DNA of 64,000 nucleotides from Nitrososphaerota archaeon (GCA_041641295.1 JBEPYO010000001.1:448001-512000), one strand, 5' to 3'. Counted from the stretch's first letter, positions 22,705 to 38,271 are shown. Numbers and translations are program-made. Notes: generated by a model from the letters alone, not told the origin.

Positions 22705-22774
22705 CTGTGCAGATAAAAACGATGCATGGTGGAGATGCGATAGAATTAAATAAAAGTGCACTATTAAATCGTCC

Positions 22775-23656
22775 GTGCCCAAGTTTGAAGTTGATACAAA
22801 ATATATTCACGGAATGCTGGATCCCAAGTATATAGGTAAACCCGAAGAAGTACTCATAAAACCAATTCTCAAATTATTCGGCGAAGAGGTAGAGGTTTAT
22901 GACTTATCCCATCCATTCGGCCCCGGTGTTCCTCTCTGGCCATACTTCCCAGACATAAGGGTTGAAAGAATGCACTACCACGCTAAATCACGTGTCCTGT
23001 CCCAAGTGATAACTACAGTGATGCATGTCTCTACCCACGCAGACGCGCCAGTACATGTTGAAGAAGGATTTCCCTCCATAGACCAAGTGCCTATTGAAAG
23101 ATACATGGGTGATGGAGTGGTCGTATCTATTCCTAAAGGAAAGTGGGATGTAATAACAGCTGAAGATTTAGAAAAAGCCGATCCACCTATTGAGCGGGGC
23201 GACATAGTTATCGTAAACACGGGCTGGCATAAGTATTGGGGAGATACAGTGAAATACTTCTGTTATGCCCCTGGTTTCTATAAAGAGGCAGGCGAGTGGT
23301 TCGTAAAGAAAGGGGTGAAGGCGGTCGGCATAGATACACAAGCCTTAGACCACCCCCTGGGGACGAGAGAAGTCTGGTACCAAGATGGGGGAGACGAAAG
23401 AAACGTCGTAGTACCATGGCTGGCTGATGAATATAAAAAAGAGACTGGAAGAGATGTCCGTGAAGACTTTCCATACTGGGAGCCATGCCACAGACTGTTG
23501 CTGACACATGGGATCGTCGGCTGGGAAAACGTTGGCGGAGACATAGACAAAGTAACGGGCAAACGATGCTTCATAATAGGGTTACCGATAAGATGGGTTG
23601 GCGGAGACGCATCAATAGTTAGGCTAGTTGCAATAGTCAAAAAATCCAAAGCGTGA
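22775..23656 (+). CDS. Cyclase/kynurenine formamidase family metallohydrolase; candidate dihydrophloroglucinol cyclohydrolase
   Basis: MHVSTHADAP (HxxTHxDAP), IVNTGWH, GIDTQALDHP, ENVGGDID; adjacent to the SDR and cupin. Confidence 0.8.
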   Translation: MPKFEVDTKYIHGMLDPKYIGKPEEVLIKPILKLFGEEVEVYDLSHPFGPGVPLWPYFPDIRVERMHYHAKSRVLSQVITTVMHVSTHADAPVHVEEGFPSIDQVPIERYMGDGVVVSIPKGKWDVITAEDLEKADPPIERGDIVIVNTGWHKYWGDTVKYFCYAPGFYKEAGEWFVKKGVKAVGIDTQALDHPLGTREVWYQDGGDERNVVVPWLADEYKKETGRDVREDFPYWEPCHRLLLTHGIVGWENVGGDIDKVTGKRCFIIGLPIRWVGGDASIVRLVAIVKKSKA

Positions 23657-23661
23657 TAATA

Positions 23662-24498
23662 TTACGTCCAGCTAGTCACTCCACCGTCAATGTATAGTAT
23701 CTGGCCAGTGACAAAATTTGACGCATCAGAAGCAAAATAAACGATAGCCCCTATCAAATCGTCTGGCACCCCCCACCTACCCAGCAATATTCTTGACAAC
23801 ATACTCTTTGAAAGCTCTGGATCTCTCATAATGTGAGACGTTAATGGAGTGGCTATGACTGTCGGGGCTATAGCATTGACTTGGATATTGAACTTCGCCC
23901 ACTCACAGGCAAGCTGCTTGGTAAGCATGTTGACGGCACCCTTGCTGGTACAATATGCCACATAATTTCTTGGAAGACCAAAAGCTCCTCTAACGGAGGA
24001 GACATTAATTATTTTACCCTGTCTCTGCCGTATCATTACTTTTCCCACTTCTCGGCATGATAGGAACACTCCTGTAACGTTTACATCCATTACAGTCTTC
24101 CAATCCTCGAGAGGATATTCTTCGGCTGGCCTTAGAATATTAATTCCAGCATAATTGACGAGAATATTTATCTTTCCAAAATTATCGACAGCCTCCTTAA
24201 CCATGTTCTTAACATCGTCAGGCTTAGTTACGTCGCATGGTACGGGGAGACATTTTCTCCCCAGCTGCTCGACCTCTTTTCTCACACGCTCCAGTTTATC
24301 CATATTCCGCCCTACTACCACTATGTCCGCCCCAAAGTCGGCCAGTCCCAAAGCTGTTGGCCTACCTAGACCTCCCCCGCCTCCAGTTATCACAGCAACT
24401 CGCCCTGAAAGATCGAAGAGCTTACGGTAGCCCATAGATCCGCTTTTTATCCTCTCGTCCAGCGATTTCTGGTACTCATCTAGATAGGAGTCGCTCAT
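23662..24498 (-). CDS. Short-chain dehydrogenase/reductase; candidate phloroglucinol reductase
   Basis: TGGGGGLG, VGRN (basic residue suggests NADP preference), SSVRG, YCTSK, VNAIAPTV, DGG. Confidence 0.8.
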   Translation of the reverse strand: MSDSYLDEYQKSLDERIKSGSMGYRKLFDLSGRVAVITGGGGGLGRPTALGLADFGADIVVVGRNMDKLERVRKEVEQLGRKCLPVPCDVTKPDDVKNMVKEAVDNFGKINILVNYAGINILRPAEEYPLEDWKTVMDVNVTGVFLSCREVGKVMIRQRQGKIINVSSVRGAFGLPRNYVAYCTSKGAVNMLTKQLACEWAKFNIQVNAIAPTVIATPLTSHIMRDPELSKSMLSRILLGRWGVPDDLIGAIVYFASDASNFVTGQILYIDGGVTSWT

Positions 24499-24505
24499 CT
24501 ATTCA

Positions 24506-24856
24506 TCATCCCTTCTTCTCAGGGTATGCGCTGATAACCAACATAGTAGCAGGCAAGTTAGTCTTATTGATGATTGCTCGCTTCTCGCCAGCCTCTATGT
24601 AAAGCGAATCGAAGGGTTCCAACACTATTTCCTTACCATCCTCCGTAATGATGGTAAGCTTGCCTGAGAGCATGACGTATACTTTATCAGAATCATTCAC
24701 CGAAGATTCAGCACCTCCGCCGGGCAAATAGTGAGACAAGCCGACCCAAAACGACTTCGTGCCAGTAGTGTCTCTGTGATGGAGTCTCAGAGCCACCATG
24801 TTAAAGTGTTTAGGCGGGTCGTAGGGTTTTGCCTCTTCCAACTTGACGAGCTTCAT
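24506..24856 (-). CDS. Cupin domain protein lacking the His metal ligands
   Basis: FWVGLSHYLPGGGAE, KVYVMLSG; start ATG 24856 or TTG 24880. Confidence 0.75.
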   Translation of the reverse strand: MKLVKLEEAKPYDPPKHFNMVALRLHHRDTTGTKSFWVGLSHYLPGGGAESSVNDSDKVYVMLSGKLTIITEDGKEIVLEPFDSLYIEAGEKRAIINKTNLPATMLVISAYPEKKG

Positions 24857-25133
24857 TTTTGATCGTAGATTTTCACGCAATACCCAATATTTGAAGTTTT
24901 ACGAAGTTCATTTAAAGCCTAGAACTAACTTTCACTACTGCAGAACACGTATACACATTACCACTATATAGGCCCAGTCGGCCTTGCAGCTCAATCTTAG
25001 CCATAAAACCATCACCAACAGATCCTCCTGGGCACGAGAATGAAGGTGCGTTTCCGATCAAAGCATCTCTTCCCAACGAGTATAGGATACTCTACAAAAA
25101 CCCCTTGAAAAATTTAACAAATCTGGTCAACAA

Positions 25134-26120
25134 CTAGCTGGAACTATTGGAATCATTAGCTAAGAAATAATTTGATAGATCTTCGGCCCGTTGCAGCTTC
25201 AAGATTTCAAGAAGAGCTTTGTTTCTTCTCTTTACTATTTCGCTTATAGCAACCTGCTGATACGCATAAAAACCTCTACCGCTCTTAACTCCAAGTAGTC
25301 CATTTGCAACATATCTCGCAAGTCTTGCTGAAGGGGTAAACCTTTCCCCCAACCTTTGAGCGAGATACTCTAGCGCCTGCAAGAAAACGTCGAGTCCCCC
25401 CAGATCAGCGATCTGAAAGGGACCCAGCATGGGATACCTTAAACCCACTGTAAGTCTAACTACTTTATCTATATCCGAGGGAGAGGCAAGATTTTCATCC
25501 AACATTCTCATAGCTTCTGCGAACAATGCTGCCTGCAGACGAACACCAATACCACCAGGTGAGTCCTTACACACCACCACCTCTTTTCCTAGCTTTTTAG
25601 TAAATAGATCTACAACTTTTTTTATGATGTCCTCGTTATAATCTGTCTTTATTATTTCAACCAAGGGCATTAGGTATGGAGGGTTCCACCAATGCGTTCC
25701 CACAACCCTCTCTTTGTGTCTTACTTCCTTCGCAATCTCCGAAATCTTAAACGACGAGGTATTCGTAGCTAGAATAACATCTTTTCCACAAAAATCGTCA
25801 AGCTCCTTGAATAGCCTAATTTTTAACTCAAGTACCTCCGGCGCTGCCTCAGTTACAATTTCGACACTCCCTCTAACAGCACTCTGTAGGGAAGTGGTTG
25901 TCGATACTCTTTCTAAAAAATCGTTGCTACTCCCATGCTTTAGAGCACCAAATAAGGAGGGGTCCTCCAAAATGTTTTTAATGTTTTTTACACTTTTTTT
26001 AAGGATTTCTTCATCAACATCAACCAGTGTAACTTCGTATCCCGCTGTCAAGTAAACTACTGCTATACCAGTTCCCATTAAACCAGAGCCTATTATTACT
26101 GTCTTCGGCGCAGAACTCAT
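25134..26120 (-). CDS. 3-Hydroxyacyl-CoA dehydrogenase family protein; candidate 3-hydroxy-5-oxohexanoate dehydrogenase
   Basis: GSGLMGTG, EAAPE, TNTSS, HWWNPP, DLGGLD, GVKSGRGFY. Confidence 0.85.
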   Translation of the reverse strand: MSSAPKTVIIGSGLMGTGIAVVYLTAGYEVTLVDVDEEILKKSVKNIKNILEDPSLFGALKHGSSNDFLERVSTTTSLQSAVRGSVEIVTEAAPEVLELKIRLFKELDDFCGKDVILATNTSSFKISEIAKEVRHKERVVGTHWWNPPYLMPLVEIIKTDYNEDIIKKVVDLFTKKLGKEVVVCKDSPGGIGVRLQAALFAEAMRMLDENLASPSDIDKVVRLTVGLRYPMLGPFQIADLGGLDVFLQALEYLAQRLGERFTPSARLARYVANGLLGVKSGRGFYAYQQVAISEIVKRRNKALLEILKLQRAEDLSNYFLANDSNSSS

Positions 26121-26142
26121 TTTCTTTCCCGCACACCATTAA

Positions 26143-27351
26143 TCATTTGAGTTTCTTCACAATATTTAGAAATTCCTCGTCTGTAAGCGCTCGTCTTAGC
26201 CTTATAGCTTCCTCCTTAACAAGATCAACTAGCTTGGCTATCTCCGACTCTGACAATTTAATGTTGAACTCCTTCAGTTTATACTCTATACTTGTGGCAC
26301 CACTCTTCTTACCGACTACTATCTTGACCGGCGGGCGCCCCACTAATGATGGCAGGTATGGCAACATACCTAGCTGAAGGCCTGCCTCTTCGCACATTTT
26401 CCACATGAATACTACCAAACCTGATTCGAAAGTGAACTGGTTGTCGCCTACCACGGCCTTCGTTGGTGAAGGCTTAAACCGCGTTATTTCCGCCACGAGT
26501 TTTGACACCTCATAGATCTTCTCGAGCTTGATTCCGGTATCTACACCCATTAAGAGTTTCAACGCTAATGCAACCTCCTCTGTAGCAGGGTTGCCCGTCC
26601 TCTCTCCAAGCCCATTTACACAACAGTGTACATACTCAGCACCCGCTTGAATAGCTGCCAGATAGTTCGCAACGCCAAGCCCGAAATCATTATGGGTATG
26701 CCACTCTATTGAGACCCCGCTGCCTACCCATTTTCTGACTTGTCTGACCCTAAGCTTTACTGCATCAGGAAGACACATACCGAACGTATCGGCTATGACC
26801 ACTGAATCACATTTAGCCTCTTTGACAACCTGCGTCACAGCTCTCTCAACAAATGATGGATCGGCCCTGGCAGCATCTACAGCCATGAATGAGACATAGA
26901 GTCCATGTTCCTTTGCATACTCATGGATCTCGATATACTTTTGAATTGCTTCCTCCTCACCCCACTTGAACAATGCTTTGATGCTCTTGGGGTTGATAAG
27001 TGTGTCCGTCACAATCGCTTTTACCTCGGTATCCAAAGCAGCATCTATGTCTTCTTTTTTAGCTCTACAAAGACAAGTTACCTGTGCCCTTAATCCTTGA
27101 CGCACCAATTCCCTTATGGCTTTTTTGTCTTCTTCTGAAACTACGGGCATACCTGCCTCGATGCGTGAGACACCAAGCTCATCCAACGCGATAGCTATTC
27201 GAATCTTATCCTCTTTCGTCAGAGTTACTCCCGGAGTCTGCTCACCATCACGTAAAGTTATATCATGAATATGTACGCGGTCAGGAATGGACCAGTCTCT
27301 TCTTACATCAGGGAGCTCGTTAAGCGGTGTTACCCACCACTTTTCCCCCAT
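26143..27351 (-). CDS. DRE-TIM metallolyase (homocitrate/isopropylmalate synthase-like) without a LeuA regulatory domain
   Basis: DITLRDGEQTPG, HTHNDFG, NGLGERTGN, GKKSG. Confidence 0.82.
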   Translation of the reverse strand: MGEKWWVTPLNELPDVRRDWSIPDRVHIHDITLRDGEQTPGVTLTKEDKIRIAIALDELGVSRIEAGMPVVSEEDKKAIRELVRQGLRAQVTCLCRAKKEDIDAALDTEVKAIVTDTLINPKSIKALFKWGEEEAIQKYIEIHEYAKEHGLYVSFMAVDAARADPSFVERAVTQVVKEAKCDSVVIADTFGMCLPDAVKLRVRQVRKWVGSGVSIEWHTHNDFGLGVANYLAAIQAGAEYVHCCVNGLGERTGNPATEEVALALKLLMGVDTGIKLEKIYEVSKLVAEITRFKPSPTKAVVGDNQFTFESGLVVFMWKMCEEAGLQLGMLPYLPSLVGRPPVKIVVGKKSGATSIEYKLKEFNIKLSESEIAKLVDLVKEEAIRLRRALTDEEFLNIVKKLK

Positions 27352-27572
27352 AGACTACATGCACCTCACCAAACGCCCATAAAGGTGTAAAATAAATGTT
27401 CTTTAAGGAGGAGCCGGCTATGCACTGTTTTTTGATTAAAACCGGTTCACTAGGATGCTAAAAGACCAGCATTATACTTTTGACAAATTAATATACGCCA
27501 ATTGTTGAATTTGTAAGTTACAGTTCACGCCAGCGACCATGGATGTAAACAAATATATGCATTAATGTTTAA

Positions 27573-28997
27573 ATGCAGGCACATATCCTAACAAACGACA
27601 TGTCTCGAATCAAAAACCAGCACTCGCTTCCACTCAGAGCTGCAATAACTAAAGTCACCGCGATAATCCTTGCATCCATAGTCGTTGTGGCTGCCGTTGC
27701 CGCAGTTTTGTACTATGTGATGGTTGTACAAGCCCCAGCCGCCCCCGAGGTAATAAAAATTGGATGGCCAGTTCCACTCACAGGCCCAATAGCATCATTC
27801 GGAGAGCCAGACCCATGGGTTGCACAACAGATTGAACAGGTCGTTAATCGCGATGGAGGAGTCTTCCTATCAGCATATAACAAGAAGGTACCTATCAAAA
27901 TCATAATCAGAGACACAAAGAGCGATCCTAACTTCGCGGCTACAGTCGCCGAAGAGCTAATTACCCGTGAACAAGTAGACCTTATAGTTGTCCTCCATAC
28001 ACCGGGAACCACTGTTCCAGTAAGCGGTGTCTGTGAGAGGTATAAAGTGCCTTGCATAGTTTATGACACCCCCGTTTTAGCGTGGCTTCAGGGTGGACCA
28101 TACGAATGGTCATTTTTAGCATTCTGGACAGAAGTAGATGTAGCTCAAATCTTCGTTGGGATATGGGATAAACTCGGGGCAAAAACCAACAAAGTAGTAG
28201 CGGGAATATGGAGTGACGATCCAGACGGCCGCACATTCCGAGAACTTACAATTGCATTAGCCCAGGCTAGAGGGTACAAAGTCATTGATTCAGGTGTCGT
28301 ACCATATGGAACTCTGGACTTTTCAGCCTATATACGGGAGTGGAAGGCACAGGGTGCAGAGATACTGACAGGCAACCTAATACCACCAGACTTTGCAACA
28401 CTCTGGAGACAGAGCAGAGAGCTTGGATTCATTCCCAAAGTAGCCACCATAGGCAGGTCCATCCTCTTCCCATCGTCAGTTGAGGCTTTAGGCGGAGACC
28501 TAGGTATCGGTCTCACAACCGAAGTATGGGTGCACAAAGTTTCACCTTTCAGGTCTTCTCTTACAGGGCAAACTCCAAGAGAACTTGCTGAAGAGTATGA
28601 GAGGGCAACTGGGAAGCAATGGTCCACGCCTCTAATATTCTCCCACGCGGCCTTCGAAAATGCAATAGACGCTCTGAAGCGCGCAGGAAGTCTAGATAAG
28701 GAGAAGATAAGGGACGCTATCGCCAATACCGATTTAGACACCATCGTTGGTCATATAAACTTCAAAAGAAGCCTAACAGAGATACTTACACCTGAAGAGT
28801 TGGAATTGTATAAAAAGTACCCTGCTCTAATACAATACCAAAACAGTTATTCCATTACTCCAGTAATTGGAGGCCAATGGGTCAAAGGTACAAAGTGGCC
28901 TTATGAACTCGAAGTAGTGTATAACTGGAAGTACGATAATATACCAGAAACTGCAGAACTCAAAACGATCCCAGAACTTCTCGGCACCGGAGGATAA
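27573..28997 (+). CDS. ABC transporter substrate-binding protein (LivK-like)
   Basis: N-terminal TM helix; KIGWPVPLTGPIASFG, DTKSDP. Confidence 0.85.
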   Translation: MQAHILTNDMSRIKNQHSLPLRAAITKVTAIILASIVVVAAVAAVLYYVMVVQAPAAPEVIKIGWPVPLTGPIASFGEPDPWVAQQIEQVVNRDGGVFLSAYNKKVPIKIIIRDTKSDPNFAATVAEELITREQVDLIVVLHTPGTTVPVSGVCERYKVPCIVYDTPVLAWLQGGPYEWSFLAFWTEVDVAQIFVGIWDKLGAKTNKVVAGIWSDDPDGRTFRELTIALAQARGYKVIDSGVVPYGTLDFSAYIREWKAQGAEILTGNLIPPDFATLWRQSRELGFIPKVATIGRSILFPSSVEALGGDLGIGLTTEVWVHKVSPFRSSLTGQTPRELAEEYERATGKQWSTPLIFSHAAFENAIDALKRAGSLDKEKIRDAIANTDLDTIVGHINFKRSLTEILTPEELELYKKYPALIQYQNSYSITPVIGGQWVKGTKWPYELEVVYNWKYDNIPETAELKTIPELLGTGG

Positions 28998-29028
28998 ATT
29001 CGGCAGCATTTAAATAATAAAGTTCAAA

Positions 29029-29763
29029 ATGATCGGCATGCTTGAAGTAATTGGACTCACAAAACGTTTCGGAGCCTTGACGGCCGTTAAAAATGTAAGT
29101 TTTAAAATTAGCGAGAAAGAGATAGTGGGTTTGATTGGCCCGAACGGCTCTGGAAAAACAACTCTCTTTAATCTTATTTCTGGATTTTATAAACCAGATT
29201 CTGGCAAAGTGATGTTCAGGGACCATGAAATTAGTGGTCTTCCTCAGCATAAAATTTGCAAAATGGGCATTGCGCGGACTTATCAAATTCCTAGGCCGTT
29301 TCTAGAAATGAGCGTGCTTGAAAATGTTATGATCGGTGCATTATATGGTGCAGATGAAAGCCTAGGTAAAAGCCGTTCCCACGCATTGGAGTGCTTAAAG
29401 TTTGTAGGCCTAGAGAAGAAAAAAGATGTCCCCGCCCATAATCTTAACGTCTCAGAAAGAAAAATGCTTGAGATAGCTAGAGCCTTAGCTACGAAGCCCA
29501 AACTTTTGCTACTTGATGAACCTCTAAGCGGATTAAATCCGAAAGAAGTAGCGCAGGCTAGAGAACTCATTAGAAGAATTAGAGACGACTTCGGCGTCAC
29601 CGTGTTTTGGATTGAGCATATTATGAGAGCCCTAAGGGGTGTGGTTGAACGCGTTATCGTATTGAACTATGGAGAAAAGATTGCTGAAGGGTCTTTTGAA
29701 GTGGTATCCAGTAGCAGTAAAGTAATAGAGGCTTATCTGGGAGAAAAATGGGTAATTGGGTGA
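29029..29763 (+). CDS. ABC transporter ATP-binding subunit (LivG-like)
   Basis: GPNGSGKT, LDEPLSGL. Confidence 0.9.
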   Translation: MIGMLEVIGLTKRFGALTAVKNVSFKISEKEIVGLIGPNGSGKTTLFNLISGFYKPDSGKVMFRDHEISGLPQHKICKMGIARTYQIPRPFLEMSVLENVMIGALYGADESLGKSRSHALECLKFVGLEKKKDVPAHNLNVSERKMLEIARALATKPKLLLLDEPLSGLNPKEVAQARELIRRIRDDFGVTVFWIEHIMRALRGVVERVIVLNYGEKIAEGSFEVVSSSSKVIEAYLGEKWVIG

Positions 29764-29769
29764 TACGTA

Positions 29770-30477: not shown

Positions 30478-31346
30478 TGGAGATACTCAGTTACATAAAT
30501 CTCATATTGAATGGCTTATTGCTTGGGGGACTCTTCGCTCTAACAGCTTTCGGCTTATCAGTGCTAGCCGGCATAATGAGAGTTATCAATATAGCGCACG
30601 GCGACTTTGCAATCCTAGCCGCATATTTGTCACTTACCATTATGAATTCTTTCGGAATGGATCCATTTTTAAGTTTAGTCTTTGTAGCGCCAATAATGTT
30701 TGCGGTGGGCTACTTTTTCCAAAAATTCACAATAAACAGAGTCCTTGCGATGGGGGCAAACCAAGTGGTTCTAGTAACATTTGCCTTGAGCATTGTAATC
30801 CAAAACCTTCTGCTCTTAATATTTACTGCTGACGCGAGGAGCTTGATAACGCCGTACCTTCTTACAAATATAGAGCTGTTTGGACTGAATCCATCACCAC
30901 GCTACGCTGTAGGCTTCATTTCGGCTTTAATAGTGTTCGGACTGATCTTCATCTTTTTCAAGAAAACATACTTAGGCAAGGCTATGCGTGCTGTCCCCTT
31001 CGACCCCGAAGCAGCAAAAATGATTGGAATAAAATCTGAAGTCATCTACAATTATGCCGCCGGATTAGCCCTATTAGTGGTGGCCATAGCCGGAGTACTG
31101 CTGGGCTTGGCTTTCACTTTTTATCCCGATACGGGTCCAATGTACGTACTACTTTCTTTCGGTGTCGTTGTTATGGGAGGTTTGGGAAGTTTGAAAGGTA
31201 CTTTGATTGGAGGATTTATCCTAGGTGAAGCATTAGTCTTGGGAGGCTTCTTCTTCGGTTCACGATTTCAGCTAATGTTCTGCTATCTCGTCATACTAGC
31301 CATCCTATATCTGAGACCTCGAGGGCTCTTCGGGGGGAAAGTTTAG
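30474..31346 (+). CDS. ABC transporter permease (LivH-like)
   Basis: VINIAHGDF, VVMGGLGS, RPRGLFG. Confidence 0.88.
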   Translation: MMEILSYINLILNGLLLGGLFALTAFGLSVLAGIMRVINIAHGDFAILAAYLSLTIMNSFGMDPFLSLVFVAPIMFAVGYFFQKFTINRVLAMGANQVVLVTFALSIVIQNLLLLIFTADARSLITPYLLTNIELFGLNPSPRYAVGFISALIVFGLIFIFFKKTYLGKAMRAVPFDPEAAKMIGIKSEVIYNYAAGLALLVVAIAGVLLGLAFTFYPDTGPMYVLLSFGVVVMGGLGSLKGTLIGGFILGEALVLGGFFFGSRFQLMFCYLVILAILYLRPRGLFGGKV

Positions 31347-31347
31347 A

Positions 31348-32280
31348 GTGTTGGAGTTAAAAAGCCGTTACATCTACATTGTCATTTTGCTAGCTGTTCT
31401 TACCTCGCTGCCTTTATGGGTTGGAGGCTTCCTAAGAGATGCGCTAATATTGTTCTTCCTATATTTGGCTGCTGCAGAAGTTTGGGGGTTTATGGCCAAG
31501 CACGCGGGTATAGTCTCTCTTGGCCAACAAATTTTTATAGGGGTCGGAGGCTATACGACGGCTGTTCTTTCCATGTATTTTGGAATCCCCATGTATGCTA
31601 GCGTTATAATATCTGGGCTCCTTGGAGCCGGCTTGGCTGGCCTGCTATCCTTTCCACTTTTGAGGTTACGTGGTGTTTACTTTGCAATAGGCACTTTTCT
31701 TGCAGCGGAAGTTATTAGACTTGCCTTTAGTGGCTGGGAATTTGTGGGTGCTGGCAAGGGACTGATATTTAGAGACGCTTATGGCATTCCTACGACTATA
31801 ATCTACTATCCTGCCTTAGCCCTTGCAGTAATTTCAATTTTCTTGGTATACCTGCTATATCATTCAAAGTTAGGATTTGGGTTAAGAAGCATAGGGGCAG
31901 ATGAGGATGTTGCCTGTGGACTTGGAGTAAACACCTTCGTGTGTAAAGCCACGTGCTTCATCCTCGCTTCACTTATCACGACCCTTGTAGGAGCTGTTAA
32001 TGTTATTCATCATACGTACCTTCACCCCACCTCAGCCTTCAGCATTTCGTGGACTGTAAACTTCCTTTTCGTGGCTGTTATCGGAGGGGTGGGGACAATA
32101 GTAGGACCAATAATTGGCAGCGCGTTATTTGTAGCGTTCGGGTACTTATTTGCCCAATACCTAGGACTCAGCCTCCTTTTAGAAGGCCTGATTGTACTCG
32201 CGATCCTGATAGCTCTTCCGCAAGGAGTCTGGAGCGCCATTTCTAGAAAATTAAAACTAAATCTAAAACCACCGCTATAA
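31348..32280 (+). CDS. ABC transporter permease (LivM-like)
   Basis: SLGQQIFIGVG, RLRGVYFAIGT, IGGVGTIVGP. Confidence 0.88.
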   Translation: MLELKSRYIYIVILLAVLTSLPLWVGGFLRDALILFFLYLAAAEVWGFMAKHAGIVSLGQQIFIGVGGYTTAVLSMYFGIPMYASVIISGLLGAGLAGLLSFPLLRLRGVYFAIGTFLAAEVIRLAFSGWEFVGAGKGLIFRDAYGIPTTIIYYPALALAVISIFLVYLLYHSKLGFGLRSIGADEDVACGLGVNTFVCKATCFILASLITTLVGAVNVIHHTYLHPTSAFSISWTVNFLFVAVIGGVGTIVGPIIGSALFVAFGYLFAQYLGLSLLLEGLIVLAILIALPQGVWSAISRKLKLNLKPPL

Positions 32281-32521
32281 AGCTAAAAGCATCAACGTGT
32301 CATATTTTAATATCGCGTGGAAAATGATATTGCTAACCACGCCGTTATAAAGACAAGCTAACGTTTAGTCGTCATCAACACTATTTTTTTAAATACTCTA
32401 AAATTGCTACTATAGCGAAGGCCGTTCTATTACCAGATTCAGTAGGAGGAAGATTAGCAACAGAAGATAGGTCTGTGGGAGGCAGGCTTAAGTAGAGAAA
32501 ATATTATATACAAGTTATCGA

Positions 32522-33880
32522 TTGCTTATGGACATGAAAATGCCTATTTCTGCAGCAGCTATTACAAAAATGCATGCAATAATAATGGCCGTAGTTATTA
32601 TCATAGCCGCTGTAGGCGCGAGTGCTTCTTATTACTTAACGCTGAGGCCAGGCGCTCCAGAATACATAAAAATTGGATGGCCAGCCCCCCTTACCGGAAC
32701 TCTTGCCGGATTTGCTGAGACAACACCATGGATGGCACAACAAGTGGAGGATTATGTCAACAATAAGTTGGGTGGAATATATCTCTCAGAATACGGCAAA
32801 AAAATCCCAATAAAAATAATCATAAGAGATACAAAAAGCGATCCTGACCTCGCAGCAACCATAGCAGCCGAACTGATAACTAAAGATAATGTTGACATAA
32901 TGTTGGCGCTTTATTCTCCAGCTATGACGAATCCCATAAGTGCGCAATGCGAGAAATATGGAGTACCATGCATAGTTTCGCAGACAATACTATTGTCTTG
33001 GCTCATGGGGGCCCCCTACGAGTGGTCTTACGCCATAGGCTTAGCCGAGCCAGACTTCGCAATATTGTTCTTTGATTTATTTGATTCGATGGGAGATAAA
33101 GTAAACAAAAAGGTTGCCATGATTAATGCAGATGACCCTGATGGAAGAGGTTTTTCAGAATCGATAAAAATAGTAGCAAAAGCGCGTGGGTATACGCTTA
33201 TCGATGCTGGGCTAGTGCCTTATGGTGCGGCAGACTATTCTTCATATATCTATAATTGGAAGAGTTCGGGAGCGGATATTCTCACAGGCAACATGCTTTT
33301 TGTAGATTTTGCAACCCTCTGGAGACAGTGTAACGAGCTGGGTTATAAGCCAAAAATCGTGGCCATGTCGAGAGCGTTGCTGTTTCCTTCATGGGTAGAG
33401 GCAATAGGCGGCGAACTACCCAACGGGCTAATAGGATATACCTGGTGGTCGCCTTTCCACCCCTATAAGTCATCTATAACTGGACAGACTGCGAGCCAGC
33501 TAGTTGAGGCTTGGGAAGCTCACAGCGGTAAACAGTGGACACCAGTACTAGGCCTCACGCACGCTGTACTGGAGGTAGCTATAGACGCGGTTAAAAGGGC
33601 AGGAAGCCTTGACAAAACAAAAATAAGAGACGCCCTAGCCGAAACCAACCTTAACACTATAGCAGGACCTGTCAATTTTAAGGCACCTCTAACACCACAA
33701 CAGCAGGCGCGATACCGGCCATTCGAAAATCTAATGAAGTACAAGGATCATTATGTCGTTGTGAGCCCGGTGGCAATTCAATGGGTTAAGGGATCCAAGT
33801 GGCCTTGGGAGATGCAGGTAATCTATAATTGGGAGAGCCCAGAGATACCTGAAACAGCCAAGATGTTCCTTTTAAGCTAA
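32522..33880 (+). CDS. Second ABC substrate-binding protein, paralogue of 27573-28997
   Basis: Shares IKIIIRDTKSDP, DFATLWRQ, DAxKRAGSLDK and KWPxE...YNW with the first binding protein. Confidence 0.85.
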   Translation: MLMDMKMPISAAAITKMHAIIMAVVIIIAAVGASASYYLTLRPGAPEYIKIGWPAPLTGTLAGFAETTPWMAQQVEDYVNNKLGGIYLSEYGKKIPIKIIIRDTKSDPDLAATIAAELITKDNVDIMLALYSPAMTNPISAQCEKYGVPCIVSQTILLSWLMGAPYEWSYAIGLAEPDFAILFFDLFDSMGDKVNKKVAMINADDPDGRGFSESIKIVAKARGYTLIDAGLVPYGAADYSSYIYNWKSSGADILTGNMLFVDFATLWRQCNELGYKPKIVAMSRALLFPSWVEAIGGELPNGLIGYTWWSPFHPYKSSITGQTASQLVEAWEAHSGKQWTPVLGLTHAVLEVAIDAVKRAGSLDKTKIRDALAETNLNTIAGPVNFKAPLTPQQQARYRPFENLMKYKDHYVVVSPVAIQWVKGSKWPWEMQVIYNWESPEIPETAKMFLLS

Positions 33881-34108
33881 GATCCACCTTTATTTTCTAA
33901 CCTCTCCTTTCAAGAACTTTAGTGAAACATCTACTAGATGTTGTTATCTAATCGAAAGGCTGTTTACCCTTCCAAAGAGTTGCCTCCCTCCTACGTTTTG
34001 GGACCGTATCGACACAGCAGTTCGATGGTGAAAGGCTTAAATACAAAGCGGTAGGGCAGAAAACTGTGTATACTGATCATTTGATAAAGTCAAGAAGGGT
34101 GTCTTTGG

Positions 34109-35128
34109 ATGGAGATAATAGATTTTGAAGCACACTTTTATACAAAAGAGTATGTTAAAGCTTTGATAAAAAACAAAAGCTATCCAAAATACAAAAAGGA
34201 TAGAGAAAAGAACATTCATTGGCTGTGGTATGCTCCCAACGTGTTAGAGCCTCACACAGGACAACTTCTAGAAAGACTTCTTGACTTGAGTGAGAAGCGA
34301 TTTAAGGATATGGCCGAGGCAGGAGTGAAAATGCAGGTTTTGAGTCTTTCTGCACCGGGATGCGAACAGTTTAACCCTCCACTAGGTACTAAACTCGCAA
34401 AAAAGGTTAATGATGAGTTGTCCAGAATTGTGGAGAAAAATCCAGACAAATTTGTCGGTTTAGCCGCCCTTGCGCCTCAAGACCCCGGAGAGGCTGCAGA
34501 TGAGCTTGAAAGGGCTGTGAAAGAGTTGGGGCTTAAAGGATGGAAAACCCACTCCAATATACGTGGAACATATCTTGACAATAAAAAATTTTGGATTATA
34601 CTGGAAAAAGCTGAGAAGTTAGGTGTTCCCATATTTTTACACCCAACCATTCCCTTGATCAGAGAGCTTAGAAAGAGTTACGGATATGCTTTGGCTGGAC
34701 CTGCTTTCGGCTTTACCTTTGATACGGCTTTATGTATGATGCGTTTAATTTTAAGCGGAGTTTTTGATAAGTATCCCAATCTAAAGTTCGTATTGGGACA
34801 CTTGGGCGAGGCCATGCCTTTCCTTCTTAATCGGCTTGACTTTCCGTTTGTAAGACCATGGGTTACTCAGGGAGTGAAGATGAAACTTTCAAAGAAGCCC
34901 AGTGAATACTTCAAAAATAATGTCTATGTAGGTACAAGTGGCGAATTCCACAATTCAGCTCTAATATGCACTGTTCAGACAATGGGTTACGACAAAGTTC
35001 TGTTCGCTTCAGACTATCCTTATGAACATACAGCAAAGGCTGTAGACCGCATAAATGCGTTGCCATTGTCGGATGAGGAAAAAACAAGAATCTATCATTT
35101 AAATGCGAAAAATATCTTAGGCCTTTAA
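34109..35128 (+). CDS. Amidohydrolase_2 family non-oxidative aromatic acid decarboxylase (gamma-resorcylate/LigW-like)
   Basis: DFEAHF, MQVLSLSAPG, FLHP, GHLGE, FASDYPYE. Confidence 0.8.
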   Translation: MEIIDFEAHFYTKEYVKALIKNKSYPKYKKDREKNIHWLWYAPNVLEPHTGQLLERLLDLSEKRFKDMAEAGVKMQVLSLSAPGCEQFNPPLGTKLAKKVNDELSRIVEKNPDKFVGLAALAPQDPGEAADELERAVKELGLKGWKTHSNIRGTYLDNKKFWIILEKAEKLGVPIFLHPTIPLIRELRKSYGYALAGPAFGFTFDTALCMMRLILSGVFDKYPNLKFVLGHLGEAMPFLLNRLDFPFVRPWVTQGVKMKLSKKPSEYFKNNVYVGTSGEFHNSALICTVQTMGYDKVLFASDYPYEHTAKAVDRINALPLSDEEKTRIYHLNAKNILGL

Positions 35129-35222
35129 AAATGGTTTATAGACGTGTCAACAAAATTTTATGTGCGGTGTTCCTAATCTCCTTGCGTTCAATAGGGTTAA
35201 AAATAGAGGTTTGAGTGGATGG

Positions 35223-35852
35223 TTATTTTCTCGCCCCAATATTGTATAGGTAGGGTAGGAGGACGGAAAGGTTTCTCATTTCTTCTGCGCAATGCTGAAA
35301 GAGGTTTTTAGCTATATCGTAGCTGGTGTACGTTGGGTTTAGCCAGAAGCGGCTGCGCATTTCGCAACCCACATCGATATTCCGGACAAAGTGGGTCATG
35401 AAGCCGGCCTCGAGCTCTGTTCCTTCCCCACGGATATACAGACGGGCACAGATAGCTGTTGCTCGTGCCTTCTCAAACTTTGATACATCATAAAAATTTG
35501 CTGGATCTTGAAAGTGGATCCTCAGTTTTACTACAGGTGGTTTGCCTCCGAGGGTTTCGTCCACTATGTGACTGGCTCCAATGTAATTGCCTGGAGTCCA
35601 ACGGTCATCCCAAACACCATGTATGTGATCCACGGGATGCCAAAGTTTGTATATTTGAGTATGCTCTTTAGGAGAAAGGCCATAGGCGAACCACCACTCT
35701 ATCATTTTTCTATCGCAAAAGGGCATTCTCGTGAGTACGGCTACAAGGTAATATCCGTTTGATAAGCGAATATATCCGCTTTCTAGGGGCAAATAGCCTG
35801 GGTCTAGAAGGCGATCGATCTGGTCAACCGTTAATTCTAAATTTTCAGACAT
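35223..35852 (-). CDS. PhlG/phloretin hydrolase-like C-C hydrolase
   Basis: LESGY, MIEWWFA, YKLWHPVDH, EMRSRFW and HCAEEMRNL match the DAPG hydrolase PhlG family, including candidate Zn ligands; start ATG 35852 or upstream GTG. Confidence 0.8.
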   Translation of the reverse strand: MSENLELTVDQIDRLLDPGYLPLESGYIRLSNGYYLVAVLTRMPFCDRKMIEWWFAYGLSPKEHTQIYKLWHPVDHIHGVWDDRWTPGNYIGASHIVDETLGGKPPVVKLRIHFQDPANFYDVSKFEKARATAICARLYIRGEGTELEAGFMTHFVRNIDVGCEMRSRFWLNPTYTSYDIAKNLFQHCAEEMRNLSVLLPYLYNIGARK

Positions 35853-36279
35853 GGTATCACTTCTCACCTTTGACTGAGCGCTATTGCGGTATAAATAACT
35901 TTTATTTAAGCCCACCTCAGATGTGCATCACTGTTGATTAGTGACACGCCTACATTGGTTTGGGTTTTAGGCGGTGAGTTCTGCATTAGTAATATGCCTT
36001 TTTTTAAAAATACTGCCTATCGAAAAATGTAGTTACAGCGCCTGTGTATGGTGCTGGTAAGACCCCCTCTATGATCCTATCCCTTCTCAATAGCGATTGG
36101 GCCTCCCGTATTAGTTGGAATCTTGAAAGTTGTAAACGCCGCTAATGGCTATGCGATGATCTTCTCGGTTTATGTCTCATATTCTTTTTGGAGATACTTT
36201 GATGTCGATCCATTTCTATCCATACCTCGTATGGCATAGATGATTTACTGGAGCTGAATATTTAAAAACTAGTCTAAAG

Positions 36280-38271
36280 ATGGTTTTGATAACAGACTTG
36301 AGTAAGCTTCTCTGGCAACCTGCGTATGAAGATGTGGCGAAGGCGAACATCAAGCGGTTTATGGAGCTTGTCAACGCGAAGAATGGTCTATCTCTAGATC
36401 CGTTTGAGAAGGGCGCCTACTTCCATCTCTATGAATGGAGTGTTACGGATATTCCGGCTTTCTGGGATAGTGTATGGGAGTTTGTCGGGATAAGAGCAGT
36501 CGAGCATTATGATATGGTTGTGGATGATTTAGATAAATTCCCTGGGGCTAAATGGTTTGTGGGTGCAAGGCTAAACTTCGCGGAGAATCTCTTGAAAGCC
36601 GAGGTTGACCGTCCGGCGCTAATATCAAGGAGGGAAGACGGCTATTCGAGGAGTGTTTCATACCAAGAGTTGAGGGGGCTAGTAGGTGGCCTCTCAAAGG
36701 GTCTGCTAGAAGAGGGGATAGGTGTTAATGATCGAGTCGCCGCATATATGCCCAATATCATCGAGACGAGCGTGGCTATGTTAGCCGCCACGTCGCTGGG
36801 GGCTTCATGGTCCTCGATAGGTACTGAGATGGGGGTTGATTCTGTCATTGATAGGTTTGGACAGGTGGAGCCTAAGGTTTTGTTCACTGTCGACGGCTAC
36901 ATATATAGGGGTAAAGAGTATGATGTCTTAGAGAGGGTTAGGGAAATTGCGAGAAATATCCCATCTATTAAGCGGATCGTTATTGTGCCTTATCTGAGGG
37001 ATAATCCGCGCATAGACCACATTCCGAAAAGCATCTTAATCGACAATTTCATGTCTGCTAAGAGTGCACCATCATACACTCATGTTCCTGCCTCCTCCCC
37101 CTTGTATATCATGTTCTCATCAGGTACTACAGGAAAGCCGAAATGTATGGTGCAGCCAATAGCCGGTGTCCTAGTAAATCATCTGAAAGAGCTTGTCATA
37201 CACACAGATCTTAAGCCTGAAGATGTAGTGACGTATATCACTTCGCCGAGCTGGATGATGTGGAACTGGTTGATGAGCGCTCTCGCTGTAGGATCCACAA
37301 TCTTTCTCTATGATGGCGACCCAAATTATCCGGACTGGAGGACCATGTGGCGGCTTGTAGAAGAACTTGAAATAACGGTCTTTGGCTGCAGTGCAAGCTA
37401 CATAAACAATCTCAGAGGCTTGGCGGCGCGGCCGGGCGAGCTGCACAACCTCGAATCCCTCAGGGAAATATCGCAGACCGGCTCGGCCCTTTCACCGGAA
37501 GGGTTTGAATGGATTTATACAATGGTTAAGAAGGACTTACACTTTAACTCCATTTCAGGCGGTACAGATATAAATGGATGCTTCGCCGCCGGAAGCCCTA
37601 TACTGCCGGTGTACGCAGGGCAGATCCAGTCTCCTGCCCTAGGTATGAAGATAAAGTGCTACAATGAAGAGGGCGAGCCCGTCCTAGATAGGGAGGGGGA
37701 ACTTGTGTGCGAAGCCCCGGCACCATCGATGCCAATATATTTTCTCAATGACGAGGGGTTCGAGAGGTATTTAGACGCATACTTCAGATTTTATACTAAT
37801 AAGCGGGTCTGGAGGCACGGCGACTATGTCATATTCCACAGCGACACAGGGGGGATAACATTCTTGGGGAGAAGCGACGCCACACTTAAGCCCTCGGGCG
37901 TGAGGATAGGCACAGCTGAGATATACCGCGTGCTCGAGAGCTTTCCCGAGATAGTGGATAGTCTTGCCGTGGGGCAGAGCTGGAGAGGGGATCAGAGGAT
38001 AATACTCTTCGTCAAGATGGCTAAAGGATTTATGTTGACTGATGAGTTGATAGATAGGATTAAGAAGGCTCTACGCGAGAGAGCTTCGCCGCGACATGTT
38101 CCTGCTATAGTCATAGAGGTACCTGACATACCTTACACGTTTAATATGAAGAAAGTCGAGATAGCGGTAGCGAATATAGTTAACGGGAGGAAAGTAACTA
38201 ATAAGGCGTCGATAATGAATCCAGAGTCTCTTGATTATTTTGAGAAGATACTCCCTTTGCTCAGGGATTAG
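36280..38271 (+). CDS. Acetoacetate--CoA ligase
   Basis: LNFAENLL, FSSGTTGKPK, SISGGTDI, GRSDATLKPSGVRIG, KKVEIAV. Confidence 0.9.
   Translation: MVLITDLSKLLWQPAYEDVAKANIKRFMELVNAKNGLSLDPFEKGAYFHLYEWSVTDIPAFWDSVWEFVGIRAVEHYDMVVDDLDKFPGAKWFVGARLNFAENLLKAEVDRPALISRREDGYSRSVSYQELRGLVGGLSKGLLEEGIGVNDRVAAYMPNIIETSVAMLAATSLGASWSSIGTEMGVDSVIDRFGQVEPKVLFTVDGYIYRGKEYDVLERVREIARNIPSIKRIVIVPYLRDNPRIDHIPKSILIDNFMSAKSAPSYTHVPASSPLYIMFSSGTTGKPKCMVQPIAGVLVNHLKELVIHTDLKPEDVVTYITSPSWMMWNWLMSALAVGSTIFLYDGDPNYPDWRTMWRLVEELEITVFGCSASYINNLRGLAARPGELHNLESLREISQTGSALSPEGFEWIYTMVKKDLHFNSISGGTDINGCFAAGSPILPVYAGQIQSPALGMKIKCYNEEGEPVLDREGELVCEAPAPSMPIYFLNDEGFERYLDAYFRFYTNKRVWRHGDYVIFHSDTGGITFLGRSDATLKPSGVRIGTAEIYRVLESFPEIVDSLAVGQSWRGDQRIILFVKMAKGFMLTDELIDRIKKALRERASPRHVPAIVIEVPDIPYTFNMKKVEIAVANIVNGRKVTNKASIMNPESLDYFEKILPLLRD

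Follow-up and report, generated by a model that had tools for sequence, protein, structure and literature searches.

[quoted passage not shown] 2023, mBio, PMC10470551). That paper distinguishes DPGC from isatin hydrolase by Trp20 and Tyr22, notes that in some organisms the cluster comes with a DAPG/phloretin hydrolase, lists Mycobacterium among the cluster-bearing genera and reports a phloroglucinol gene cluster in Archaeoglobus, a genus of sulfate-reducing archaea. A variant has been described in Collinsella sp. zg1085 (Li et al. 2024, AEM, as summarized in part of the review PMC13039779). The PGR and DPGC steps are common to both pathways, but the downstream C–C cleavage is replaced by an aldolase of the EC 4.1.2.4 type that converts 3-hydroxy-5-oxohexanoate to acetone and malonate semialdehyde.

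The window analyzed here, a stretch of 64,000 nucleotides from a Nitrososphaerota archaeon (GCA_041641295.1 JBEPYO010000001.1:448001-512000), carries a related set of genes (Table 1). Judged by sequence and gene context, ~22,094-38,397 is probably a single horizontally acquired catabolic island in an archaeon, for the uptake and breakdown of phloroglucinol or close acyl- or carboxy-derivatives by the C. scatologenes reductive route. The island and the C. scatologenes cluster have in common an SDR reductase, a W-x-Y cyclase-family hydrolase, a 3-hydroxyacyl-CoA-dehydrogenase-like enzyme without the CoA contacts and a transporter, and acetoacetate activation lies downstream in both (PMC10470551). 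The island differs in having an ABC-type transporter, not the MFS type of the published account, in the added cupinA, cupinB, isopropylmalate-synthase-like (IPMS-like) and LigW-like genes, in a Val at the TfD Asn position and in its host, which is an aerobic hot-spring archaeon. What appears to be new relative to the known cluster is that BKACE/TAL is absent from both island and genome, and that a predicted AMP-forming ligase takes the place of the CtfAB-type CoA-transferase in activating acetoacetate. In archaeal clusters (Archaeoglobus, predicted by Zhou 2023, PMC10470551; MAG loci L010 and L008; G158 and G384) the cyclase is 73-82% and the SDR 64-73% identical to the island's, with the same Val-type dehydrogenase and with cupinB present. 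L010, L008, G158 and G384 keep BKACE, and L010 also has CoA-transferase subunits, whereas the island has neither.

Table 1. Features of the island and its left edge (positions in the window)
Feature	Position	Strand	Match or remark
tRNA-Asp (GTC)	22011..22087	+	ARAGORN; marks the island's left edge
Genomic island, ~16.3 kb, low GC	about 22094..38397	.	contains all listed pathway genes
CupinA, canonical metal-binding cupin (H-x-H-x4-E ... H)	22300..22704	+	Cupin_2, 73 bits
DPGC-like hydrolase (cyclase)	22775..23656	+	PF04199, 128 bits
PGR-like SDR	23662..24498	-	adh_short
CupinB, small conserved 'fifth gene' of clusters	24506..24880	-	Cupin_2
TfD-like dehydrogenase, acting on 3-hydroxy acid	25134..26120	-	3HCDH_N + 3HCDH
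IPMS-like DRE-TIM protein (HMGL-like), 402 aa	26143..27351	-	HMGL-like, 236 bits
Liv-type ABC transporter, whole	27573-33880	+	
Substrate-binding protein 1	27573..28997	+	Peripla_BP_6
LivG, LivF, LivH, LivM-type ATPases/permeases	29029-29763, 29770-30477, 30474-31346, 31348-32280	+	ABC_tran, BPD_transp_2
Substrate-binding protein 2	32522..33880	+	Peripla_BP_6; paralogue of binding protein 1, 53% identity
Non-oxidative hydroxybenzoate decarboxylase family member	34109..35128	+	Amidohydro_2, 134.7 bits
Phloretin-hydrolase/PhlG-like C-C hydrolase	35223..35915	-	DAPG_hydrolase, 153.8 bits
Acetoacetate-CoA ligase	36280..38271	+	NF002937 825.6 bits (cut-off 639); TIGR01217 770.5 (cut-off 520.9)

All nine components named in a sequence-only reading of this DNA were recovered in place by ORF calls, Pfam and NCBIfam. 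The HMGL-like gene, the second cupin (cupinA) and the second binding protein had been overlooked. That reading had taken the pathway to be undescribed in archaea, which the Archaeoglobus cluster in Zhou 2023 (PMC10470551) contradicts. Its phloroglucinol pathway is partly supported: the reductive ring-opening core with uptake, feeders and acetoacetate activation holds, but the BKACE cleavage step has no gene here and the TfD Asn is replaced.

The host is an archaeon by its 16S rRNA. Its genome is 93.8% complete in 5 contigs and encodes a haem-copper oxidase, with cox genes following the island, so the aerobic oxidase claimed earlier is indeed there. The island has a GC content of 42-48% and its flanks 52-57%. 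An empty site is found in three of five genomes of the same genus, exactly at the island position beside tRNA-Asp. In these genomes (G114, G152 and G273) the tRNA-Asp match lies 28-85 bp from the match to the window from ~38,400 onward. Since tRNA-Asp abuts the sequence beyond ~38,400 in these congeners, the gene set moves as one unit. A cyclase orthologue was found in none of the 7 same-genus and none of the 14 same-family genomes. Single contigs from three hot-spring runs (two studies, possibly the source) read from flank through island to flank and span both junctions. A search for a flanking direct repeat of at least 12 nt at the island found none.

How general is this arrangement? Gene context was sampled in 78 loci from other genomes, chosen solely by a cyclase relative; many are short contigs, and all are counted in n. 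Within 5 kb of the cyclase there is an SDR relative in 59 of the 78 loci, the small cupin cupinB in 48 and the dehydrogenase in 40, numbers that place their co-location beyond chance. Other relatives are BKACE (28), the binding protein (14), the PhlG-like hydrolase (11), the acetoacetate-CoA ligase (8) and Amidohydro_2 (7). Twenty of the loci have archaeal record titles. Many bacteria and archaea have the recurrent set of cyclase, cupin, SDR and dehydrogenase next to BKACE; the archaeal locus L010 and Mycobacterium persicum (L062) each carry the complete set with BKACE. This recurrent set matches the C. scatologenes phloroglucinol pathway, the link to the characterized CsPGR, CsDPGC, CsTfD and CsTAL being through gene context and the published text (Zhou 2023, PMC10470551).

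The cyclase is 82% identical to a protein of Archaeoglobus fulgidus DSM 4304 and 62-68% identical to 250-aa bacterial forms. It carries the metal motif H-x-x-T-H-x-D-x-P-x-H plus the pair W55-x-Y57, and none of H84, H88, D90, H94, W55 and Y57 varies among 14 sequences of archaeal and bacterial relatives. W55/Y57 correspond to W20/Y22 of the 250-aa bacterial form P0083. The cyclase-family assignment made earlier is thus borne out by the metal motif and by the W-x-Y pair, the mark of DPGC in Zhou 2023 (PMC10470551). The strings quoted earlier for the SDR (SSVRG, AYCTSK and VNAIAPTV) are all in its translation. A profile made from 24 SDRs of bacterial clusters with BKACE gives it 363.5 bits, while the genome's next paralogue reaches 201, and it falls inside a clade of cyclase-adjacent SDRs (SH-aLRT 99), a grouping that agrees with its earlier placement in the pathway. 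A profile of 32 cyclase-adjacent SDRs has as its top solved match 5g4k/5g4l (285 bits), which we take to be the Clostridium phloroglucinol reductase. Against the PGR reading, the window SDR searched alone matches 1vl8, named gluconate 5-dehydrogenase, at 211 bits and 5g4k at 140 bits.

This last result would suit a substrate other than phloroglucinol, namely another 1,3-dioxygenated ring or beta-diketone (methylated or acylated phloroglucinol, a resorcinol derivative or cyclohexanedione) on which SDR and cyclase would act by analogous chemistry. The same may be said of the Val at the Asn position of the archaeal dehydrogenases, and of the two binding proteins and two feeder enzymes in the island. 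A second, divergent type of cyclase/SDR pair is also found in archaea (the second pair of L001, L016-18, L040, L054 and L071) and indicates that the module has diversified. However, the cyclase identity of 62-68% holds across domains to full BKACE-bearing clusters with W-x-Y invariant, the SDR falls among the SDRs of BKACE clusters, apart from those of the divergent pairs, and the phloretin-hydrolase-like and acetoacetate-CoA ligase genes fit a phloroglucinol hub with acetoacetate as product. We regard another substrate as quite unlikely.

The dehydrogenase retains Ser122 and His143 relative to Clostridium acetobutylicum HBD (6aa8), and three other positions are substituted: Lys56 by Ala59, Asn221 by Arg228 and Asn188 by Val193. 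All 34 cluster-linked sequences have Arg228, which the core paralogue lacks. Scored with a profile of bacterial cluster dehydrogenases, the island gene (289 bits) does not stand out from a core paralogue (294.5 bits). As for the TfD assignment, two CoA-binding residues are gone as described for TfD, with Ala59 and Arg228 in their place, but the catalytic-site Asn of TfD is Val here. Val193 at this TfD-conserved position is shared with four other archaeal sequences and counts against the TfD reading. With the CoA-contact residues lost, the intermediates as far as triacetate should be free acids, not CoA esters.

The Liv-type importer scores as LivG/LivF-like by NCBIfam, under the cut-offs. Its binding protein 1 shares 89% identity with that of L001, and 14 of the 78 loci have a relative next to the cluster. 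The best solved relatives of the decarboxylase are 5-carboxyvanillate decarboxylase (205.6 bits) and gamma-resorcylate decarboxylase; it is possibly a feeder, converting for example trihydroxybenzoate to phloroglucinol. The PhlG-like hydrolase matches phloretin hydrolase 5xey first (72 bits) and PhlG 3hwp next, and reaches 54.7 on the NCBIfam PhlG equivalog, where the cut-off is 600. As a putative feeder it would free phloroglucinol from acylphloroglucinols. The closest solved relatives of cupinA are the Mn-cupin TM1459, RemF and quercetin 2,3-dioxygenase; a feeder role as oxygenase or isomerase is conceivable, and no relative of cupinA was found in any of the 78 cyclase loci. CupinB, conserved in clusters, is probably a pathway member. 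It probably starts at the ATG at 24856, giving 116 aa, and its sequence is in the Atlas from residue 9 onward. Conservation does not extend to the canonical cupin His motif, but Y20, H25, S49, Y68, R101 and N105 are shared by all of 35 sequences. A second copy of the acetoacetate-CoA ligase, 68% identical to the island's, is present in the core genome.

The sequence-only reading had nearly every enzyme of the island mapped to a step. This fails at the making of acetoacetate, as a gene for TAL is missing from island and genome alike: a Pfam search and tblastn found no BKACE in either, and no PF01144 CoA-transferase is present in the host genome. As the usual last C–C cleavage enzyme is missing from both, this step must run another way. 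On the same strand as the dehydrogenase gene, and 22 bp upstream of it, is the IPMS-like gene, at a place where a cleavage enzyme of this kind might be looked for. We advance its product as a tentative candidate for the missing C6 (triacetate) cleavage. Over ~350 residues it aligns with Neisseria IPMS 3rmj (181 bits) and Sulfolobus homocitrate synthase 6ktq (178 bits), and it falls under every NCBIfam cut-off (e.g. 358 vs 517). Like the Claisen-condensing DRE-TIM synthases for 2-isopropylmalate, homocitrate and citramalate it retains LRDGEQ and H-x-H-N-D (here HTHND), the metal and oxo-acid motifs. Unlike them it has no C-terminal regulatory domain, and the H-x-x-G-x-H site reads FTFESGLVV with both His gone, whereas the LeuA/CimA paralogues of the genome keep the motif. 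The first His is presumably the catalytic base partner for acetyl-CoA enolization. In favor of IPMS-like cleavage, the only other BKACE-less DPGC genome found, G381, has an IPMS-like gene between two cyclase genes, its BKACE absence being weakened by a completeness of only 81%. Against it, just two of the 78 cyclase loci have an IPMS-like gene, about the chance expectation with four such genes per 1.5 Mb, and one of the two, L067, has BKACE elsewhere in its genome. None of the five closest orthologues (58-61%) adjoins a cyclase, and no relative of the cyclase, dehydrogenase, cupinB, BKACE or ligase was found in 80 metagenome loci of the IPMS-like family. We know of no precedent for triacetate-type cleavage in this family.

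This lack of linkage to the clusters is in keeping with a route in which the IPMS-like gene has no part, being carried along as a passenger or acting on some other substrate. An acyl-CoA ligase, the island's or its core paralogue, would activate triacetate or 3-hydroxy-5-oxohexanoate, and a housekeeping thiolase would split triacetyl-CoA to acetoacetyl-CoA and acetyl-CoA. Such a CoA-ester/thiolase scheme is reportedly an older proposal for Pelobacter acidigallici. The genome has three to four thiolase genes and two acetoacetate-CoA ligase paralogues, and three of the eight ligase-bearing loci (L004, L011 and L019) lack BKACE in the flank sampled. However, the other five (L032, L038, L042, L057 and L061) have it, as do the L004 and L011 genomes elsewhere; the usual role of the ligase therefore seems to be alongside BKACE, as the enzyme that activates acetoacetate. 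The island ligase also scores above curated acetoacetate-CoA ligase cut-offs, and the loss of CoA contacts in the dehydrogenase further weighs against the scheme, which we consider rather unlikely.

The flanks of the IPMS-like orthologues hint at yet another product. An aldehyde:ferredoxin oxidoreductase gene adjoins the IPMS-like gene in three of the five closest orthologue loci, suggesting an aldehyde, and the Collinsella aldolase offers a parallel (review PMC13039779). The IPMS-like protein could then act on (S)-3-hydroxy-5-oxohexanoate as an aldolase or lyase, or be a triacetate decarboxylase whose product, acetylacetone, is cleaved by cupinA with O2, and no acetoacetate would be made. Aldolases, lyases and oxaloacetate decarboxylase all belong to the DRE-TIM superfamily, and these families are among the weaker NCBIfam matches; cupinA has a complete metal site and the host is aerobic. 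But the Collinsella pathway needs neither TfD nor acetoacetate activation, and the island has a TfD-like gene and an acetoacetate-CoA ligase that would be left without a role. There is no malonate-semialdehyde dehydrogenase gene in the island, with three aldehyde dehydrogenase genes elsewhere, and the EC 4.1.2.4 type of aldolase is a different family (PMC13039779). We think this outcome improbable.

The pathway proposed from sequence and gene context would keep acetoacetate as its product. The importer with its two binding proteins would bring in the phenol(s), and the PhlG/phloretin-hydrolase-like enzyme and the LigW-like decarboxylase would free phloroglucinol from acylated and carboxylated precursors. 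The SDR would reduce phloroglucinol with NADPH to dihydrophloroglucinol, the cyclase-family hydrolase would open the ring to (S)-3-hydroxy-5-oxohexanoate and the dehydrogenase would oxidize this free acid to triacetate (3,5-dioxohexanoate). Triacetate would be cleaved to acetoacetate and a C2 unit by an enzyme other than BKACE, for which the likeliest agent, put forward with reserve, may be the co-transcribed IPMS-like metalloprotein. The island's ligase would convert acetoacetate to acetoacetyl-CoA and the core thiolases would yield acetyl-CoA, which the aerobic respiratory chain could oxidize. This archaeal island very probably serves the import and breakdown of the plant phenol phloroglucinol, and does so without the usual last C–C cleavage enzyme.

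Phloroglucinol is the hub for mineralising flavonoids, tannins and acylphloroglucinols by routes that use no ring-cleaving oxygenases. A cluster that probably serves phloroglucinol breakdown lies in a low-GC island of the window (see the table), and all the functions assigned to its genes are predictions drawn from sequence and gene context. The sequence-only reading had listed a cyclase, an SDR, a cupin, a dehydrogenase-like enzyme, a PhlG-like hydrolase, an aromatic decarboxylase, an acetoacetate-CoA ligase and an ABC importer, and every one of these genes was recovered by ORFs and family scans. The cytochrome oxidase genes it reported are also present, in the core genome just beyond the island. 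Three genes were missing from its list, namely an isopropylmalate-synthase-like (IPMS-like) gene, a second cupin (cupinA) and a second substrate-binding protein. Its statement that the pathway was undescribed in archaea went too far, because this is a known pathway, already predicted for Archaeoglobus in the main text of Zhou 2023 (PMC10470551). The part considered new is this variant of it, with a mobile island as carrier, an aerobic hot-spring archaeon as host, no TAL, ligase-based activation of acetoacetate and a His-less IPMS-like gene in the operon.

Features of the island and its left border (window positions)
Feature	Position	Strand	Basis or remark
GH36 alpha-galactosidase gene	19650-21755	-	left flank
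tRNA-Asp	22011-22087		
Second cupin (cupinA)	22300-22704	+	full metal motif
Cyclase (PF04199)	22775-23656	+	ORF and family scan
SDR	23662-24498	-	ORF and family scan
Small cupin (cupinB)	24506-24880	-	ORF and family scan
3-hydroxyacyl-CoA-dehydrogenase-family protein	25134-26120	-	ORF and family scan
HMGL-like, isopropylmalate-synthase-like gene	26143-27351	-	22 bp upstream of the dehydrogenase gene, same strand
Liv-type ABC transporter	27573-33880		ORF and family scan
Second substrate-binding protein	32522-33880		
Amidohydro_2 protein	34109-35128	+	ORF and family scan
DAPG-hydrolase-domain (PhlG-like) protein	35223-35915	-	ORF and family scan
Acetoacetate-CoA ligase	36280-38271	+	NF002937, 825.6 bits (cut-off 639); TIGR01217, 770.5 (cut-off 520.9)

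The host is an archaeon. Its SSU rRNA gene, 3.4 kb upstream of the window, is archaeal and won the clan competition among SSU models with 1446 bits, and the island proteins have their nearest relatives in MAGs that bear the labels Candidatus Caldarchaeum, Nitrososphaerota and Bathyarchaeia. The GC content is 42-48% between 22 and 38 kb and 52-57% in the flanks. Five same-genus genomes were compared for an empty site, two of which were uninformative as their flanks are on separate contigs. In the other three (G114, G152 and G273) 28-85 bp of one contig separate the match to the tRNA from the match to window sequence from ~38,400 onward, and the region from ~22,094 to 38,397 is therefore a 16.3-kb insertion. 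Among 401 genomes sampled from the phylum, a cyclase orthologue turned up in 4, the host genome (G000) being one of the four; none turned up in 7 genomes of the same genus or in 14 of the same family. Comparison of the tRNA region with the right border for att-like direct or inverted repeats gave no common word of at least 12 nt, and no integrase appeared among the Pfam hits of all island ORFs. Flank, island and flank are joined on single contigs with 0-3 differences in three hot-spring metagenome runs, which belong to two studies and are possibly the source of the window DNA; since contigs from three runs span both junctions, an assembly error in a single data set does not explain them. No island-bearing RNA run was listed among the public runs. 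The GH36 gene just left of the tRNA is conserved core flank, with DNA identity of 75-87% in five congeners.

[quoted passage not shown] PGR is an SDR, DPGC is a Mn-dependent ring opener of the cyclase family, TfD is a 3-hydroxyacyl-CoA-dehydrogenase-like protein with a free-acid substrate, and TAL belongs to the BKACE family and forms acetoacetate and acetoacetyl-CoA. Their UniProt accessions in that paper are A0A0E3M5A2 (PGR), A0A0E3JZE4 (DPGC), A0A0E3GQA2 (TfD) and A0A0E3M5J5 (TAL). The same text names Mycobacterium as a cluster-bearing genus and reports Trp20 and Tyr22 as DPGC-specific, in contrast to Ile and Leu in isatin hydrolase. The island cyclase matches the Pfam Cyclase model with 128 bits (cut-off 23.1). 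Its metal motif, H84, H88, D90 and H94, is invariant in 14 archaeal and bacterial sequences, and so is W55-P56-Y57, which corresponds to W20 and Y22 in the short bacterial form P0083. It is 82% identical to an Archaeoglobus fulgidus protein. The link to DPGC is made by context, through this Archaeoglobus protein and a Mycobacterium locus (L062), and the cyclase is predicted to be DPGC-like.

The SDR is of the classical type with a Gly-rich NAD(P) site and belongs to Pfam adh_short, and its triad of S168, Y182 and K186 is invariant in 32 cluster SDRs. The motif reported to specify NADPH in PGR is T-R-(S/N) (Zhou 2023, PMC10470551, main text). At this site the island protein reads V62-G63-R64-N65 and both the cluster consensus and the solved structure 5g4k read T-G-R-N, so that Arg-Asn is kept and Thr is replaced by Val. 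A profile made solely of 24 bacterial SDRs from BKACE-bearing clusters gave the island SDR 363.5 bits versus 201 for the next paralogue in the genome. In a tree, the 44 cyclase-adjacent SDRs make up a single clade (SH-aLRT 99) that excludes the genome's five other SDRs, and the island protein groups with those of loci L001, L004, L010 and L011. Among solved structures, the profile of 32 cluster SDRs matched 5g4k/5g4l best (285 bits; 1vl8, 280), whereas the island SDR alone matched 1vl8 (211 bits) above 5g4k (140). We take 5g4k to be the Clostridium phloroglucinol reductase; a literature search on 5G4K/5G4L found no paper naming either as PGR.

For the dehydrogenase CsTfD, the main text of Zhou 2023 (PMC10470551) gives His143 and Ser122 as catalytic and Asn194 as substrate-positioning, with loss of the CoA-contact residues Lys56 and Asn221 relative to HBD. 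Alignment with Clostridium acetobutylicum HBD (6aa8) showed that the island protein keeps Ser122 and His143, numbered as in CsTfD and conserved in 34 sequences, and that its CoA contacts are replaced (Lys56 by Ala59, Asn221 by Arg228). Arg228 falls within a G-x-R-(Y/L)-P insertion, which 34 cluster-linked sequences share without change and the genome's core HBD paralogue lacks; that paralogue retains the canonical CoA-contact pattern. Two results count against a clean TfD assignment. The substrate-positioning Asn is replaced by Val193 in the island protein, as it is by Val in L001, L008, L010 and L011, and a profile of bacterial cluster dehydrogenases scored the island gene (289 bits) and the core paralogue (294.5) without telling them apart. 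The Val193-type proteins of L008 and L010 both come from BKACE-bearing clusters. The Asn is kept in 28 of 29 bacterial dehydrogenases aligned, and L031 has it one column earlier.

Seventy-eight loci from other genomes were chosen only for a cyclase relative; many are short contigs and all were kept in the denominators. Archaeal titles were found on 20 of them. Within 5 kb of the cyclase there is an SDR relative in 59 loci, cupinB in 48 and the dehydrogenase in 40, and a BKACE gene is in the flank of 28. Among ten loci annotated with Pfam, those of an archaeal (L010), an acidobacterial (L035) and a proteobacterial MAG (L051) hold complete sets, BKACE included, and tblastn placed BKACE next to the Mycobacterium persicum set in L062. 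Other genes accompany the cyclase less often: a Liv-type binding protein in 14 loci, a PhlG-like gene in 11, CoA-transferase subunits in 8, the acetoacetate-CoA ligase in 8 and an Amidohydro_2 gene in 7.

Variations on the cluster were observed. Archaeal MAGs hold a divergent second cyclase/SDR pair (L001:8046-9679, and at about 10001-11700 in L016, L017, L018, L040, L054 and L071), whose cyclase is 55-63% and SDR 40-45% identical to those of the window and whose SDRs form their own clade (support 98). Most of these pairs are without cupinB and dehydrogenase neighbours, and they may therefore act on another substrate. In L051 (14404-17102), L012 (about 13656) and L048 (about 17099), the gene next after the phloroglucinol cluster is for a molybdopterin oxidoreductase that has a 4Fe-4S subunit. 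The three copies are mutually 70% identical and may be feeders of the pyrogallol-phloroglucinol transhydroxylase type. In the archaeal MAG locus L004 (5893-9840), the cyclase, cupin, SDR and ligase genes come after a 2-oxoacid (acetoin-type) dehydrogenase E1-alpha/E1-beta/E2 set, a lipoate ligase and a 3-hydroxyisobutyrate-dehydrogenase-like gene instead of the TfD-like gene.

Some island genes may supply the pathway. The PhlG-like protein matches DAPG_hydrolase (PF18089) with 153.8 bits over profile positions 3-223 of 223 and scores 54.7 on the NCBIfam PhlG equivalog, far under the cut-off of 600. Its nearest solved structure is phloretin hydrolase 5xey (72 bits), followed by PhlG 3hwp. For the Amidohydro_2 protein, the nearest relatives are the 5-carboxyvanillate and gamma-resorcylate decarboxylases. 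Both proteins would fit the delivery of phloroglucinol from acylated or carboxylated precursors. A solved-structure search with the first binding protein of the transporter returned only distant LivJ-like matches.

The two cupins differ. CupinA, with its full metal site, is similar to the Mn-cupin TM1459, and none of the 78 cyclase loci has a counterpart of it. CupinB is a regular member of the clusters. Its canonical metal-binding histidines are not conserved, and 35 sequences have Y20, H25, S49, Y68, R101 and N105 without exception. An Atlas search with cupinB yielded generic cupin clusters only, and the word cupin does not occur in the main text of Zhou 2023 (PMC10470551). CupinB was considered as a stand-in for TAL and rejected because it co-occurs with BKACE.

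How is triacetate cleaved in this organism? The lack of TAL makes this a concrete question. The host genome (1.56 Mb in 5 contigs, 93.8% complete) gave no match to BKACE (PF05853) in a Pfam search or in tblastn with three BKACE proteins. BKACE is present in seven of eight other DPGC-bearing genomes checked (G158, G384 and G401-G405). The exception, G381, is 81% complete and, like the host, has an IPMS-like gene within the cluster, between two cyclase genes. The genome holds 3-4 thiolase genes, and no PF01144 CoA-transferase was found in it. A ligase and thiolase route could take the place of an IPMS-like enzyme at this step, and we consider this route unlikely. The core genome holds a second acetoacetate-CoA-ligase paralogue (G000:C1:741087-743045), 68% identical to that of the island.

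The IPMS-like gene is the one candidate predicted to be co-transcribed. The genome has four HMGL-family genes, this one among them, and its product aligns with IPMS 3rmj and homocitrate synthase 6ktq and keeps the metal and oxo-acid motifs, LRDGEQ and HTHND. It reads F-E-S-G-L-V at the H-x-x-G-x-H of the genome's LeuA and CimA paralogues, and both histidines are also missing from 26 of 26 other ~400-aa relatives aligned. The first of them is presumably the catalytic partner for acetyl-CoA enolisation, in which case the protein is unlikely to be an ordinary synthase. The protein differs from the Claisen-condensing synthases (IPMS, HCS and CMS) in the catalytic His and also in score, which falls under every curated NCBIfam synthase cut-off. 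That the IPMS-like enzyme replaces TAL is put forward tentatively, as a possibility that falls well short of probable.

Genomic context outside the host was examined for the same family. The IPMS-like gene occurs in 2 of the 78 cyclase loci, which is about the chance expectation, and in one of the two genomes, that of L067, BKACE is present at another site. The five nearest orthologues of the island gene (58-61%) are in other contexts, with a DPGC-type cyclase in 0 of 5 loci, and none was seen beside IPMS-like relatives in 16 fetched genome loci. An alignment-based scan gave 80 metagenome loci, a single-protein query having returned no relative, and other pathway genes were beside the family in 0 of 80. 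A family-wide link to phloroglucinol clusters was rejected on these counts. The replacement of TAL by the IPMS-like enzyme is therefore held to be less likely than not; the ligase and thiolase route is rated lower, and an aldolase or decarboxylase branch is also put low.

Two other arrangements of the family were noted. One fetched locus, in a same-order genome (L117, G106:C20, 9403-14263), has an IPMS-like gene that shares 46% identity with the L001 type; a distant cyclase-family gene (26%) is 1.1 kb away from it and an SDR (33%) 3 kb away, and genes of a Liv-type transporter are found upstream. Three Bathyarchaeia-like loci that carry 58-61% orthologues (L109:4388-8007, L110:8796-12630 and L113:4536-8184) share a conserved trio in which the IPMS-like gene stands between a divergently transcribed small cupin and an aldehyde:ferredoxin oxidoreductase. 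That cupin is unrelated to cupinA and cupinB and was rejected as an orthologue of either.

In its most specific form, the proposal that the IPMS-like enzyme replaces TAL is speculative and we lean against it: a His-less branch of the IPMS/homocitrate-synthase family would have been co-opted by hot-spring archaea of the Caldarchaeales type as a non-orthologous substitute for the BKACE TAL, converting triacetate to acetoacetate by a metal-dependent retro-Claisen reaction. We know of no precedent in this family for such a cut.

Literature linking phloroglucinol to Aigarchaeota was not found, and among the titles and abstract openings returned for phloroglucinol and Bathyarchaeota none was judged related. 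The supplementary cluster lists of Zhou 2023 (data 2-4) may include clusters from Caldarchaeales or Bathyarchaeia. Thermostable versions of the small cupin and of the His-less IPMS-like family are possible biocatalysts. If the IPMS-like enzyme does cleave triacetate, the island would be a third biochemical variant of phloroglucinol breakdown, and a widespread ~400-aa family, whose named members are 'hypothetical protein' at NCBI, would gain its first function. With a mobile-island module in an aerobic, thermophilic archaeon and 20 archaeal MAG loci, the predicted turnover of polyphenols reaches well past the anaerobic bacteria and Archaeoglobus discussed to date.
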